Of a DNA stretch of 64,000 bases, positions 41,301-46,513 are shown piece after piece. Made by a program: the position numbers. The stretch comes from Thermodesulfobacteriota bacterium (GTDB lineage Bacteria > Desulfobacterota > Desulfobacteria > Desulfobacterales > SURF-7), in NCBI GenBank assembly GCA_049320885.1, contig JBMORA010000001.1, positions 178,622 to 242,621 on the forward strand. Direction: 5' to 3'. Position 1 is the stretch's first letter, and the number at the start of each line of letters is the position of its first letter.

Positions 41301-44300
41301 GTCTCTGCTGGGCCTCACAAAACAATTATCCGACCCCCGGGCCATGGATTTTCTGGAAAAAATGGCGGCATTGCCGGGAAAAATCGATCTCTCCGGCAGT
41401 AAAAAAACCGGTCTGATGGGCATGGTGTCGGCCGGTTTCCGCCAGGACATCCAGGAAGGTCTCGGGGTTCTGCTGGAAATCACCAAGGCGCTGAGCAGCC
41501 TCAAGGACAAAACCGCGGATTCGACCGCTGCTTCGGACAAATGATGGCGCTGCCCGCGGCCCCGGTGGCTCTTTAATCAAACCATTCCCCGCCGGCGGGG
41601 CGATTTCCCGCCCGGCGGGCAGAAACCGGTGATACGAAAGCTCGCAATATGGATGGCAGTTTGCATGGATAGACGATTTTGCCGAAACCCTGCTGAAACA
41701 AAGGAGTCGATCAATGGCCTACGCCTCGGAAAAAAAAATTTTAGTGGTGGATGATGAACCGGATGTTCGTAATTTCCTGGCGACCTGTATAGAAGATGCC
41801 GGTTTTCACGTGGAAACGGCTTCCAACGGGGAGGAGGCATTGGAAAAAATAGAATCGGATCCGCCGGATTTAATGACGCTGGACATGGTCATGCCGAGAA
41901 AATCCGGTATCCAGGTCATGCGGACCCTGCGACAACATTCCAAATGCAAGAATCTTCCGGTTATCGTCATCACGGCCCATGCCCATGACGAGTTCGGCAG
42001 CGAGGACCTGAAAAGCTTCAATGCATTTGTCTCGGGACATCGCCCCCGGTACCTCCTGGAAAAACCCGTGTCACCGCAGAAGCTGGTAAAGGCCATCTGT
42101 GAAATACTGTCCGTGGAGGCCGCTGACGATACGGCACCTGTCCCCTCGGACCAGGAAACCATCGTCCGTCTGGTGAAAAGCAGCGACCAGGAGACCAGGA
42201 AAAAGATCATCGCGATGCTGTCGAATCAATCGCTGTAACGGCTGCGCCGGCGGTTCTTGCGGATCATGGAAGCGCATTCATCGTCCAGCAAATCAGCCAC
42301 GGTGATGCCGTCCAGCTTCTCATAGAGGGCGTCCGTGGCGGCTTTCCAGGCAAGGCGGGCCCTGCAGGAATCCGCCATGCCGCATGATTCGGGTGAGCCG
42401 ATGCACTCCACCAGGTCGGTCTGGCCTTCAAACAACCGGACGATGTCGCCCAGAGTGATCAAGGCCGGGTCTTTTGCAATGATATGACCACCCTTCGGAC
42501 CCCGGACACTGGTGATCAATCCGGCGGCTTTCAGCGAACGGATCAGTTGTTCCATATATTTGACGGGGATGCCCTGCTGCTTGGATATGGCGCTCACCTG
42601 AACCGGGTCGCTGTTCCAATTCCGAGCCAACTCGAGCAGGATCCGGGTGCCGTAACGGCTTCTGGTGGATAATTTCATCGCCTATGGGTACCTGTATGCA
42701 TTACCGCGGTTATGGCAACCGCTTATTGCCGGGACGATTCCCGGGTGTCGGCTTTCCGTTGGGAAACAATGGATTCACCGATTTTCTCCGCCGACAGGCC
42801 GAAAAGATCCGTCGTCGGCACCATTTCCAGGCAATCGTCTTCCCAGGATACGCTGTTTTCCTGAACGATATTCTTGATATGCTCGTATTTACCGCCAAGG
42901 GCCTTTATCTTGACGCCCAATGGAATCTGTTCCTTGAAACCGATATGGAGCAGCAGCAGAAATTCCATCAGGTTGGGAGATGCGCTGGATGCGGAAATGA
43001 TCGGGATCACGATGATGCTGCGGTCATCCTTTCTGCCTTTGCCGATGTAGACATTCCCCTGCCGCACAATGATCCGCTTGGTTCCCTTCAGCAGGGTGTC
43101 CTTTTCAACGCGGGAAGGCAAGGCAGCCAAAACGCCTTCCTTTTTCAATACATGGATGCGGGTCTCATCGGTCAGTTCTCCCAGCTTATCCAACCCGTCG
43201 ATGCGATACAGAATCGCACCTTTGATCTGTTCCACGACGCCCTGCAAATTCTTTAACACCAGCACATTTTTATTGGTCAGTTGAGCGGTCTTGAAACCAA
43301 AGGTCAAAAGGGTGTTGAACAGGATCCCCTCCACTTTTTCACTGATCCGGCTGGTTCCCACGGTTACGGTCTTGGCTTGATGCTTGATGGCGTCGATGGG
43401 ACGTGCCATGGCGTTGATGGCGTCGTTCAGGCAGGAAAAAAGGGTATTCAGCATGTTCAGGGCCGTCCCCTTGACATGGAAATCGATTTCAAAATCGGCC
43501 ACCGGCAAACGGCCGGCAAGATACTTCAACAGCAGGGTCAAATCCGCAGCCTTTTGGATATCCATGGCGCTGGATAACCGCTTTTCCTGCTTTTTCATCC
43601 GGAAAGCACGGTAAAACTCGACAATTTTTTCCCGGAAGGTTTTCTCCAGCACAATTTCAAAGACATCCAGGCCGGTTGCGGCGAACTGCTCGATGGTTTG
43701 CTTGAGATCCTCCCGGGCGTCATGCAGGAACCGCGAGCCGTCGTGAATCGCCAGGGCCGCGTAGTAGCCCCACAGATGTCCGACCAATGTGTTGACAATG
43801 GGCGAAAGGTGTTCCCCCACGATGGGGACATGAAATACATCGGCCGCGTAGGGTGCAAAGCGATCTTCCCCTTCATCGGCGATCACGACAGGCAGGGCTT
43901 TGTGAGCTTGGAAAATAGCGGTGTCCTTGATGATATCACCGATCACGGTACCGCGGGTCCCCGCGGCGCAGACAATGATCAAAGGCTCCGAAGACAAATC
44001 GATGTGCTTTTTATCCTCCACGTAATCCGTTGAAATGGTTTTATAACAGAGTTCACTCAGCTTGATGCGGATTTCATCCGCCGAGGCTTTGTTGGGCCCG
44101 CTCCCCACCGCCGCCCAGTAAGTCTTGGTGACCGCCAGGCGGTTGGCCGAGGCCTCGATGGTGTCTTTCATGGAAAGTATTTTTCGCATCTGGACCGGCA
44201 AGGCCAGTAACTGCTGGATCTCGGAAGTGATAAAATCCGGCCCCCTTCTTTTTTTGATTTCGGCCAACAGCAAACCGAGAACGGCGCCGGCCACAATCTG

Positions 44301-46513
44301 GGAATAAAAGGCCTTGGTCGAAGCCACGGACATTTCGATATCCCGCCCGCTGCTGGTGTAAATCACCCCGTCGACCTTGAACGTGATATCCGAATCACGC
44401 CGGTTGACAATGGCCAGGGTATGTCCGCCTCGCTCCCGGACCATATCCACGGTTCGATTGGTATCCGTCGTTGTTCCGGACTGGGTGATGGCGACCATCA
44501 GCATATCGCTCAACTGATCCTGACGGTTGCTTTTTCCCAGCCTGAAGCCGCTCATTTCGGAAGACTTCATGGCATCGATCTGGATTGTCGGGTCATCCAG
44601 GTAATAGCCGAGGATATCGGCACAGGCCTTGGCCGCCACCCCCGCCGTCCCCTGGCCTACAAAAAAAATCCGCCGGATACGGTCTTCCTGGAGCGCCTGC
44701 CTGATTTTCACCGGCACGGCGGATTCATCCAACGAAATGGCCAACTGGTCCCCGCTGTCCCGTCTGATCTTCCAGCGATTCTGCAGCGTCTTTTCCACCG
44801 ATACGGGCGATTCGGATATTTCTTTCAGGAAATAATGCGGATATTCCTGACGATCGATGTCCCGGGAAGTGATTTCCGTATGTTTGATATCCCTTTCGCT
44901 CAGCTCGATGGGGGTTCCGTCATAATAGAATCCGGTGATGCCGTCCAGCTTGCCGCTGGAGGCTTGATCCAGGATGAAAATCTGGCCCTGGGTTTTACCC
45001 TTTCTTCCGTCGATGATTTTTTCGCCGTCCAGTTTCAGATAGTCGGAGGTTTCCTCGACGAAACCGTACACCTCGGAAGTCGGCATGTAATGATCCTCGG
45101 CAAGCCCTACGAATACCGCCTGGCCGCTACCCCGCTGAGCCAGGAACAATTTACCCGGAAGCAAATCCGTATGCATGGAGATGGCATGGGAGCCTTCGAA
45201 GTCGTTGACCGCCAGCCGGAAGGCCTCCGGAACGGAATAACCGGCGCGGATGTGGGTTTCAATTTGGAGCGGAATAATTTTTGTATCCGTCGTGACTTCT
45301 TCCTGCAGTTCCCCCGATGTTTTTTCAAAAGCCGTTTTGAGCTCCAGGTAATTGTCGATATCACCGTTCAGGCAAACATGGATCGTACCGCTGCCGGACG
45401 GTTTCTTTTCGGCAACCCGGTTGTCCACCGGGTGACAATTGGGTTCGGTTATGGCTCCGACGGAAGCCCAGCGGGTGTGGGCGATGATGCTGCGATGGAT
45501 GATGGGCAGACCGGCGAGAACGGCCAGAATCCGGTCTTCCCGGATTTGCCTTCTCAGAAAGCGGATATTGTCCCCCAGATGCCCGATCTCGGCCGCTATT
45601 TTGTACACCAATGTAAGGGTGACCCGAAGGCCTCCTTCCTTCGTAACGGATTCACGGACACTGACGCTGCGGTTCATCAGCACCGGCTGCGCCGCCCGGG
45701 CCTCGAGCGCCGCGCCTGTTTCAAGGCCGGCGACGCGTTGCTGGAACTCGGCATAGACCGGCCCGTCCACCACAAACAACAGTGAAATCCCGGCCGAATC
45801 TCTTCCACGGACCTCCAGCCGGTCGACGCTGTTCAGGACCGCGTTGAGTTCCCGGTAGATTCCGATGGCCTGATCGGTTTCCTGCACACCGGCGGCATCC
45901 ATCAGATACCGGACCCGCTCGATATTTCCCTGTACTTCCCAGCGCAGAAACCAGGCCGCGTCCTTCAGGTCTTCAATCCGGCGTAGAACCACTTCCGTAT
46001 CGGCCGTGTCCAACTCCCCCACACGTTTAGCCAAAATCGCCGTTTCCGTCTGGACGATCTTCTCCACCCTCGCGGTTATCCCGGCGAGTCGGCCCTGAAT
46101 CGCCTCATCCCGGAATATTCCGACGAACGCCTGCTCCCGTTTCAAAATGCGGATCTTTTCCAGCAATTCCCTGATCCGTGCTCCGCCACCCAAATAGTGC
46201 TCCGCAAAGGATTTTTTTCCATCAAAATCGGAAAATCCCGACTTTTCCATGACCGTTGTCAGGTCAAGCAATTCCGCAACGGAAAACTCCCCTACGGTCC
46301 CGATTTTCCGCCTGAAAGAAATGATCCCCGCCAAACCGCAGCAAAGGGTAGCGGGCCGAAACGGAAACAGGATCAGCGCCCTGCCTGTAAACCCCTTGGG
46401 GACTTTTCCGAAAAAAACCGCCGTGGACAGGACGGCTCCCATGAGCCGGCCTAACGAAAGACACAACTCTTCGGACTTTTTTACGATAGGTCGTATCATT
46501 ATCATTGCGCTCA

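Follow-up and report, generated by a model that had tools for sequence, protein, structure and literature searches.

A double-length GlmS homologue with a conserved leader ahead of its catalytic cysteine in Desulfobacterales, and a linked loss of full-length GlmU

The synthesis of peptidoglycan and LPS precursors is entered at the reaction of GlmS, which is rate-limiting. How, then, is this step served in a genome whose only GlmS homologue is twice the usual length and carries its catalytic cysteine at residue 54? The window, a stretch of 64,000 nucleotides from contig JBMORA010000001.1 of a Thermodesulfobacteriota bacterium, contains this long-form glmS as an ORF of 1,258 aa on the minus strand (42723..46499, ATG at 46499); all features given below lie on that strand.

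A long-form GlmS homologue

The preliminary description had named this ORF as the only GlmS of the genome, and tblastn at E<=1 indeed returned it as the sole glmS-like match. Other glutamine-amidotransferase frames with a readable start had AsnB- or PurF-type starts (L253 and a seventh weak match left out). Identity to E. coli GlmS is about 25%. The ORF scored 226.5 bits against TIGR01135, below the curated cut-off of 418, and likewise below the cut-off of NCBIfam PRK00331; it is thus a superfamily member outside the curated equivalog. Because GlmS and GlmU both fall under family cut-offs and relatives are filed in databases as ‘SIS domain-containing protein’, pathway annotation fails in Desulfobacterales.

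By Pfam and structure, the domain order is that of GlmS, an Ntn glutaminase followed by two SIS domains. The model of residues 1–1062 has a mean pLDDT of 89, and its residues 54..1048 superpose on E. coli GlmS 2j6h 1..608 with Z 43.9 and rmsd 4.8 over 599 residues. This superposition places the invariant Cys54 (46338..46340) at the position of Cys1 of mature GlmS. The glutaminase domain (residues 54–544, 44868..46340; Pfam GATase_6) aligned to 1xff 1..239 with Z 29.9 and rmsd 1.7. As proposed earlier, it is split by a helical insert just past the first strand (insert 1, approximately residues 62–208, 45876..46316), which E. coli GlmS lacks and whose helices span residues 74–200 with pLDDT mostly above 90; a smaller insert follows at about residues 245–290. 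The isomerase domain with its two SIS repeats (residues 549–917, 43749..44855) leads in the model to helical insert 2 (residues 918–1035, 43395..43748) and then to the catalytic C-tail (43356..43394), which by alignment and superposition carries Lys1043, the equivalent of E. coli Lys603, and is internal here. The helical and GAF/PAS-like extension that had been placed after this lysine has therefore to be divided: the helical part precedes Lys1043 and only the C-terminal domain follows it.

E. coli GlmS uses C1, R26, R73, W74, N98, G99 and D123 for the glutaminase reaction, E488, H504, K603 and K485 for isomerisation, and S303, S347, Q348, S349 and T352 for sugar-phosphate binding. In the long form, C54, R231, R343, W344, N378, G379 and D405 were invariant in all 139 rows with the Cys (76 leader-type and 63 Met-Cys), and E816, H832, K1043 and K813 were kept in nearly all rows covering those positions, in agreement with the earlier claim of conserved catalytic residues. 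Four of the five sugar-phosphate-binding residues are also kept (S or T at 672). The exception is the Ser303 position, which is Ala (Ala619) in 130/130 covering rows, so that sugar binding may differ from that of E. coli GlmS. Predicted fold, residues and gene neighbours support the assignment as a GlmS homologue, and on fold, residues and gene context the protein very probably has GlmS activity, the mature enzyme passing ammonia from glutamine to fructose-6-phosphate.

The leader ahead of Cys54 and its fate

Residues 1–53 (46341..46499) form a leader with Met at residue 1, at residue 20 and nowhere else; the codon at −1 is TGC. We fetched 110 loci. Setting aside 8 duplicates and 11 that were truncated or could not be parsed left 91 distinct ones in which the Cys could be read. 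In line with what had been reported on fewer loci, codon −1 was ATG in only 9 of the 91 and not a start in 82, and the upstream leader motif was matched by 78. Leader codons −27 to −1 showed a dN/dS of 0.24. No locus (0/91) had an in-frame stop within 40 codons upstream of the Cys, whereas the other two frames were interrupted over this distance in 61/91 and 57/91 loci. Conservation sits at codon positions 1–2, not 3, with synonymous codon variation in the motif, and a Shine-Dalgarno-like site precedes the distal ATG in 37 of 72 loci versus codon −1 in 2 of 72. Thus selection, register, tree and ribosome-binding sites uphold the conserved pro-region of the preliminary description: the leader is almost certainly translated, as judged from sequence, with translation apparently starting some 50 codons ahead of Cys54. 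That it results from misannotation or acts as RNA, with translation starting at or beside the Cys codon, would fit the 9 ATG-Cys loci but has a negligible chance in view of the non-start codons elsewhere, the ribosome-binding sites at the distal ATG, the codon-shaped conservation, the stops in other frames and the lack of any Rfam match, glmS ribozyme included, at E<=1 between positions 41000 and 50500.

Leaders range from 40 to 66 aa across the clade and combine two elements. Residues 5–24 (46428..46487) are modelled as a basic amphipathic helix (pLDDT ~74). Its mean net charge is +3 and its hydrophobic moment is 0.43, compared with 0.27 for shuffled sequences, above shuffled in 80/89 loci. 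It is followed by a two-strand motif at fixed spacing to Cys54 (V28-G31-K32 ... F45-P46; 46362..46418), found in one register in 87/91 loci with Pro at −8 in all 87; the model has strands at 27–30 and 41–44 and a linker at 46–53 with pLDDT <50. A leader profile found nothing below E 0.49 among PDB profiles, and a Pfam profile search was also empty. The leader does not resemble a Sec, lipoprotein or Tat signal peptide: a lipobox occurred in 1/75 leaders, a Tat motif in 0/75 and transmembrane-level hydrophobicity in 2/75. The residue at −1 to the Cys is variable (C 42, S 13, N 8, Y 7 and F 7 of 87), which points to no cleavage chemistry either way.

Cys54 is likely the mature N-terminus, as its alignment with Cys1 and the Met-Cys relatives suggest. 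Ntn chemistry and the example of PurF make removal of the leader quite probable, and cleavage at the 53/54 bond would free the alpha-amine that the glutaminase requires. PurF (B. subtilis, eukaryotic) has an N-terminal extension before its catalytic Cys in some members and not in others, as does long GlmS, and glutamate synthase is another propeptide-bearing Ntn amidotransferase. GPRATase/PurF propeptides are described as being removed autocatalytically to expose the Cys (PMC7056826). The PurF propeptide is short (13 residues in the PurF-type frame of this genome) compared with the ~50-aa GlmS leader with its amphipathic helix and two-strand motif. On balance we favour self-catalysed removal, most likely an Ntn self-cleavage via an N-to-S acyl shift by Cys54; self-cleavage is not known for E. 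coli-type GlmS. The helix would probably keep the precursor on the inner membrane, and the two-strand motif would fix how far away the scissile linker lies. Giant proteins carrying a GlmS module lack the catalytic Cys and hence offer no parallel for internal processing.

Two other fates of the leader were weighed. It could stay on, as a lasting membrane anchor or as a structural hairpin, with an internal Cys54 at work or free ammonia used. Cleavage is deduced rather than observed, and the constraint on the leader is double what a disposable spacer would call for; its register is fixed and strands are predicted in it. However, the glutamine-binding and Ntn residues are as invariant in leader-type as in Met-Cys forms, and the glutaminase site thus shows no decay. 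In addition, no part of the N-terminal half of the model, first residues aside, is less ordered than the linker; we regard a retained leader as improbable. Removal by a separate host protease, which would make activation a regulated step, is quite improbable too. A conserved folded motif whose spacing to the cut is fixed and which is confined to one clade would suit such an enzyme, and the basic helix could bring the leader to a membrane protease, but no P1 residue is conserved, the leader is not a signal peptide, and no protease gene was recognised by eye among recurrent neighbour clusters.

Distribution and gene neighbourhood

Among 121 Desulfobacterales genomes, 117 matched TIGR01135, 114 with a long-type and 3 with a canonical-type protein, and 4 had no match; these counts include related genomes and are not independent observations. 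The long form thus does replace canonical GlmS across the order, as first suggested, and both intact forms co-occurred in 0 of 80 genome handles. It is not confined to the order as had been implied, being also present in Acidimicrobiia and in one Planctomycetota genome, where it starts Met-Cys. Of 150 representatives of the wide family, 91 were classifiable, 62 as Met-Cys and 29 as leader-bearing. The long form is accordingly a wide family, mostly Met-Cys, and only the leader is clade-restricted. In the tree, leader forms fall in a single clade (SH-aLRT 99), with Met-Cys forms outside it and as losses inside. Discounting P0005 (46-aa leader) and P0089 (doubtful label), the tree places one origin of the leader and at least two losses leaving Met-Cys. 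Several lineages do without the leader, which is therefore not needed for catalysis; the natural Met-Cys and leader-bearing sister forms allow direct comparison.

Immediately upstream lie kdnB, a Kdo 8-oxidase gene (46511..47632; PDB 5k8c, E 3e-153), and kdnA, for Kdo8N transaminase (47672..48865; PDB 5k8b, E 7e-164), followed by the conserved core of the order's upstream block (48852..52347), a transpeptidase-only pbp assigned by Pfam and a gene that we take, from its sequence motifs, to be metG. In the 41 loci with >=3 kb upstream, metG was present in 33 and pbp in 27, and kdnAB in only 15. In Acidimicrobiia-type loci (n=80), kdnAB was never found and glmM was a neighbour in 61; similarly, all 39 metagenome loci with >=2.5 kb upstream had Met-Cys long glmS downstream of glmM. 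An amidotransferase for another sugar phosphate, for instance in Kdo8N synthesis with kdnAB, had been kept in view earlier. It draws on the end of kdnB only 11 nt before the long glmS start, on the universal Ser303-to-Ala change and on the score below the TIGR01135 cut-off, but given the patchy occurrence of kdnAB, an optional and seemingly incidental neighbour, and the need for GlmS in 114 genomes of the order with no other one found, we consider this role very unlikely.

The GlmU partner, the C-terminal domain and the proposed route

Full-length GlmU was absent from all 80 long-form genomes searched in the order, and 62 of them had the N-terminal domain only. A stand-alone GlmU-C-like beta-helix protein was present in 70/80. 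It occurred in 17/17 leader-type genomes outside the order and in 4/50 genomes with canonical GlmS. Twelve of the 80 combined a partial GlmU with absence of the beta-helix protein, in several cases apparently through frameshifts or contig ends. Loss of full GlmU and gain of the stand-alone protein are thus linked, which the preliminary description had missed; the adjacent glmU that it reported was, in the loci examined here, the GlmU-C-like gene and not full glmU. This gene often adjoins glmM or long glmS, and forms three-gene runs with both in loci L099, L113 and L125. Four Met-Cys long-form genomes (4/4 f140) retain full GlmU without having the beta-helix protein, so the link is limited to the leader-type clade and does not extend to the whole long family.

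Both the sequence of this protein (E 7e-5) and its predicted left-handed beta-helix match the C-terminal domain of GlmU. Compared with the C-terminus of bifunctional GlmU, it is 431 aa long, with a long C-terminal extension and another His pattern: the GlmU catalytic His position is Ser132 in a hand alignment (the phmmer alignment being out of register there), and His115, His150 and His159 are invariant (26/26). The similarities in sequence and predicted fold make it a good candidate for the missing acetyltransferase. Species with only the N-terminal uridyltransferase domain of GlmU and an ‘unidentified acetyltransferase’ have been described in a 2026 preprint (bioRxiv 10.64898/2026.06.23.733835), whose main text does not contain the word ‘desulf’. 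The N-terminal-only GlmU is alike in both cases, and the partner found here, resembling the GlmU C-terminal beta-helix, offers a concrete candidate for the enzyme raised there.

The C-terminal domain of long GlmS (residues 1050–1258, 42726..43352) is modelled as a GAF/PAS-like sheet with a helical cap (pLDDT 96.5) and conserves Y1099, G1123, S1130, R1131, G1140, K1142, G1156, D1159 and E1215 (135 rows). That it is well folded stands; its earlier reading as a GAF/PAS sensory domain is weakened. The best VIA match was a GAF domain at Z 6.5 (rmsd 4.2, 97 residues, ~11% identity), within the tool's stated background range. Foldseek gave at best 7jsr (E 0.017) and nothing at E<=0.001, no Pfam or PDB profile matched, and an atlas search returned only unnamed clusters, under 0.9. 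With GAF/PAS/Cache domains (PtsP GAF 3trc; large glutamate dehydrogenase 7jsr) its model appears to share an antiparallel sheet and flanking helices (domain-model residues 4–142), and differs by its extra helical cap. The domain profile found no second copy in the genome. Since the domain sits directly on the Lys1043 tail closing the sugar site, its position would suit an allosteric lever; that it binds a regulatory ligand we rate at somewhat under even chances. One of the added domains could instead be the acetyltransferase that shortened GlmU lacks, in a GlmS-acetyltransferase fusion, as the general absence of full GlmU and the conserved Gly and basic residues of the C-terminal domain might suggest. 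Yet the separate GlmU-C-like protein tracks GlmU loss, full GlmU occurs in the f140 genomes alongside a long form that has this domain, and no acetyltransferase appeared among the 50 fold matches listed (inconclusive alone), leaving the fusion hardly any likelihood.

Taken with the preferred self-cleaving precursor, these results lead us to lean towards a housekeeping GlcN-6-P synthase of a separate long-form branch, made as a precursor and working in a rebuilt UDP-GlcNAc module. Co-occurrence and synteny suggest that this module comprises long GlmS, GlmM, the beta-helix probable acetyltransferase and a GlmU cut to its uridyltransferase domain, and would thus point to a reworked supply of an essential cell-wall precursor in these sulfate-reducing bacteria. 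A bolder version appears unlikely: a second, as yet undescribed UDP-GlcNAc route under protein-level control, in which a membrane-held GlmS zymogen is switched on by cleaving itself, the C-terminal domain senses a nitrogen or amino-sugar signal and pulls on the catalytic tail, and a new stand-alone beta-helix acetyltransferase family with its own catalytic His stands in for half of GlmU, perhaps also accounting for the ‘unidentified acetyltransferase’ in other lineages.

In bacterial GlmS, the controls described act on mRNA (ribozyme, GlmY/GlmZ) or on the oligomer state (PMC10087520); domains on the catalytic tail and proteolytic maturation would, if confirmed, add protein-level control. In the literature searched, mostly titles and abstracts with most subscription papers outside its scope, no long or propeptide-bearing GlmS was described, and the leader would be the first propeptide on a GlmS there. 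A term search for proteomic support in one supplementary file of PMC11887813 gave no match. With bacterial GlmS (E. coli; TIGR01135; PDB 1jxa, 2j6h) the long form shares the Ntn glutaminase, the two SIS domains, equivalents of the catalytic Cys, Glu and Lys, and the glmM neighbour; it differs by its double length, two helical inserts, internal C-tail with a 200-aa domain, Ala for Ser303 and, in one clade, the leader. Eukaryotic GFAT/Gfa1 matched the long GlmS equally well in structure (PDB 6r4i and others, Z 44.3). It is also a longer enzyme, and UDP-GlcNAc regulates it at the protein level (PMC10087520). Its start is Met-Cys, its chain being numbered from residue 2, and it lacks a C-terminal domain past the catalytic tail.

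Layout, identity and range of the long GlmS

The long GlmS ORF at window 42723-46499 (-) encodes 1,258 aa when counted from the ATG at 46499; alternative starts lie 2 and 5 codons upstream of this ATG, and Met20 is internal. It was the sole match obtained by tblastn over the whole genome (98% complete), and together with the ORF length this bore out the preliminary description of a double-size GlmS that is the only one in the genome. Its TIGR01135 and PRK00331 scores fell under the cut-off. A Pfam GATase_6 search of the genome returned 7 frames, 5 of which were identified, the long GlmS and 4 with AsnB- or PurF-type starts, the remaining 2 being without a start reading.

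Residues 1-1062 were modelled from a 68-row alignment (pLDDT 89). Modelled residues 54-1048 superposed on residues 1-608 of E. coli GlmS (Z 43.9, rmsd 4.8, 599 residues). Cys54 thus corresponds to E. coli Cys1, and Lys1043 falls in the counterpart of the E. coli C-terminal tail. The leader (residues 1-53) precedes a glutaminase domain (54-544) carrying a helical insert at about 62-208 and a smaller insert at about 245-290. The isomerase (549-917), a second helical insert (918-1035), the tail (1036-1048) and an extra C-terminal domain (1050-1258) follow. The second helical insert, initially placed after the catalytic Lys, in fact precedes Lys1043.

Residue conservation was examined in a 144-row alignment, from which 5 rows without the Cys were excluded. 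C54, R231, R343, W344, N378, G379 and D405 were invariant in 76 leader-type rows and in 63 rows of Met-Cys forms, the long forms without a leader. K813, E816, H832 and K1043 were conserved in nearly all rows covering them. In E. coli GlmS the equivalents of these positions have roles in the glutaminase and isomerase sites. A universal departure was the replacement of E. coli Ser303 by Ala619 (130/130 rows). In metagenomes, glmM was found upstream of the Met-Cys Acidimicrobiia-type long glmS (taxon taken from names) in 61 of 80 loci, and in 39/39 of the Acidimicrobiia-type loci with at least 2.5 kb upstream.

The order sample of 121 genomes contained 114 with a long-type match, 3 with canonical GlmS, of ordinary size, and 4 with neither, confirming that the long form replaces the canonical one across Desulfobacterales. 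A canonical gene exceeded the cut-off in 259 of the 301 genomes of the phylum sample. Among 80 genomes picked from the two samples, 21 carried the long form, 50 the canonical form and 9 none, and both forms were never intact together (0/80). Since the residues are conserved, the two forms exclude each other and glmM adjoins, a housekeeping GlmS role is very likely. By fold, residues and context the long form is a GlmS outside the curated equivalog, for which we infer a PurF-like maturation step.

The long form is not peculiar to Desulfobacterales: Acidimicrobiia and one Planctomycetota genome are among the named carriers. The 150 top-ranking representatives (clustered at 50% identity) included 91 that were classifiable, 62 with a Met-Cys start and 29 with an extension, a few of these extensions being short or doubtful. 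A quick-mode, midpoint-rooted tree of 112 rows gathered all leader forms in a single 72-row clade (SH-aLRT 99) and placed Met-Cys forms outside this clade. Met-Cys recurred inside the leader clade in representative P0006 and in two Desulfococcaceae/Desulfonema groups. Among cultured species, Desulfosarcina widdelii (L102) bears the leader and Desulfonema magnum (L053) is of the Met-Cys type. Discounting a mislabelled row (P0005) and a doubtful one (P0089), this midpoint-rooted quick tree can be read as one gain of the leader and two or three losses.

Genome G104 of the order (locus L248; C544:1387-1539) carries a divergent GlmS of canonical size, a short GlmU, the beta-helix protein described below and a short long-form fragment, perhaps a secondary replacement. 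Two long-form copies each were present in G085 and G117 (contamination 5% and 8%), which may be a binning effect. A copy of the long-GlmS core also occurs in eight giant proteins of 1,300-4,000 aa with signal-peptide-like starts (P0115, P0132, P0133, P0134, P0136, P0139, P0143, P0149). Neither the C-terminal domain nor the catalytic Cys-Gly start is part of this copy, and hexapeptide repeats accompany it in 5 of the 8. These proteins bring to mind the giant proteins of Omnitrophota.

The leader before Cys54

The codon just 5′ of Cys54 is TGC. We analyzed 110 loci, 91 of them distinct with a readable Cys: ATG stood just before the Cys in 9 and a non-start codon in 82. Among the 91 leader-type loci for which 400 nt or more of upstream sequence was available, none had an in-frame stop within 40 codons upstream (0/91), whereas the other two frames met one in 61 and 57 loci. 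The leader motif lay in exact register in 87 loci of 91, and information over codons -13 to -8 was 1.17, 1.89 and 0.39 bits for codon positions 1, 2 and 3. The dN/dS of codons -27 to -1 was 0.24 (25 disjoint pairs); in the ten codons that open the mature part it was 0.07. A Shine-Dalgarno-like word preceded the distal ATG in 37/72 loci and codon -1 in 2/72; such a word was present in 8/9 Met-Cys loci. No Rfam match was obtained at E<=1 over window positions 41000-50500. The open frame, fixed register, codon-shaped conservation, Shine-Dalgarno placement and lack of an Rfam match thus show that the leader is protein, in agreement with the conserved pro-peptide first described.

The first half of the leader is basic and amphipathic (moment 0.43 versus 0.27 shuffled; higher in 80/89) and was modelled as a helix. 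Two short strands make up the second half and lead into a linker (46-53) modelled at low confidence. Identity as a signal peptide was rejected on the leader sequences.

GlmS is described in PMC10087520 as an N-terminal nucleophile enzyme, and PMC7056826 reports GPRATase propeptides whose autocatalytic cleavage exposes the Cys. The PurF-type gene of this genome (locus L252, G000:C33) likewise has an extension, of 13 residues, ahead of its Cys. Since leader and Met-Cys forms keep an equally intact glutamine site, removal of the leader is the most economical explanation, and by analogy it is probably cut off. Self-cleavage would fit the free residue at -1. No description of a GlmS that is long or carries a propeptide was found in the literature searched, which covers few subscription papers.

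Split GlmU and the beta-helix protein

Full GlmU was not found in the source genome, the best match spanning only model positions 2-240. A short GlmU, the uridyltransferase domain, is encoded at G000:C3:4282-5106 (L111) and follows atpC, as in 8/8 further loci. Genomes with canonical GlmS often have full glmU next to glmS, judged by coordinates. GlmU over the cut-off was absent from all 80 long-form order genomes searched: 62 had just the N-terminal domain, and 18 yielded no match at 1e-35.

A stand-alone 431-aa beta-helix protein, a candidate acetyltransferase, is encoded just upstream of glmM at G000:C29:76009-77304 (L147:4010-5305, -). It matched the C-terminal beta-helix of GlmU both in a PDB sequence search (E 7e-5) and in the fold predicted for its residues 1-230, and was present in 70 of the 80 long-form genomes of the order. 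In a second set of 80 genomes it occurred in 17/17 leader-type genomes from outside the order (GlmU being partial in 16 of these), in 0/4 Met-Cys long-form genomes, all with full GlmU, and in 4/50 canonical and 3/9 no-glmS genomes; these counts include related genomes and are not independent. In 8 of these 17 leader-type genomes, its match and that of the long glmS were no more than 150 nt apart. Of 18 loci retrieved for the beta-helix gene, 15 contain glmM, and L099, L113 and L125 have three-gene runs of beta-helix gene, glmM and long glmS. The family spans Thermodesulfobacteriota, Actinomycetota and Myxococcota (Atlas). Leader-type long GlmS co-occurs with split GlmU and the beta-helix protein.

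Against the acetyltransferase candidate, the expected catalytic His of GlmU appears by hand alignment to be replaced by Ser132, although His115, His150 and His159 were invariant (26/26). Partial GlmU without the beta-helix protein, likewise a point against it, was seen in 12 genomes (including G132, G135, G148, G172 and G215); frameshifts or contig ends may account for some of these, and others may use another acetyltransferase. A likely course of events would begin with acquisition of a cassette made up of the beta-helix gene, glmM and long glmS; the 3′ half of glmU, along with the canonical glmS next to it, would then have been lost. A 2026 preprint (10.64898/2026.06.23.733835) mentions species whose GlmU consists of the N-terminal domain alone and whose acetyltransferase it calls unidentified; the word 'desulf' is absent from its main text.

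The C-terminal domain and the neighbours of long glmS

The C-terminal domain was described as a GAF/PAS-like sensory domain. It does fold confidently in the model (pLDDT 96.5), and GAF, PAS and Cache domains fill its structure-match list, but the best match (Z 6.5, rmsd 4.2, 97 residues) is within the tool's stated background. Foldseek, Pfam and PDB profile searches with the domain gave no firm match. Y1099, G1123, S1130, R1131, G1140, K1142, G1156, D1159 and E1215 were at least 91% conserved (135 rows), and several of them gather between the second and third strands, a segment that covers the pocket in GAF/PAS-like folds. This clustering in the presumed pocket-covering segment of the model suggests an anionic ligand. 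According to PMC10087520, the C-terminal tail of GlmS becomes ordered when the sugar binds, thereby closing the isomerase site. As the domain is joined directly to this tail, allosteric control through it is plausible, if somewhat short of an even chance.

Directly upstream of long glmS lie kdnB and kdnA (Kdo 8-oxidase and Kdo8N transaminase; window 46511-48865 (-)), very similar to the solved Kdo8N enzymes, then a transpeptidase-only penicillin-binding protein gene, pbp (48852-50324 (-)). Among 41 loci of the order that have 3 kb or more of upstream sequence, kdnAB was found in 15, metG in 33 and pbp in 27. A Kdo8N role of the long GlmS, raised by this adjacency, is unlikely, since kdnAB is patchy across the order and was beside none of the 80 Acidimicrobiia-type loci.

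Elsewhere in the window, a nucleotidyltransferase fused to an APH-type kinase (32691-34385 (+)) resembles the MurU-AmgK peptidoglycan-recycling fusion and could be a second source of UDP-amino sugars. A flavin oxidoreductase followed by a DUF1641 protein (39601-41544 (+)) resembles a sulfide:quinone oxidoreductase pair.
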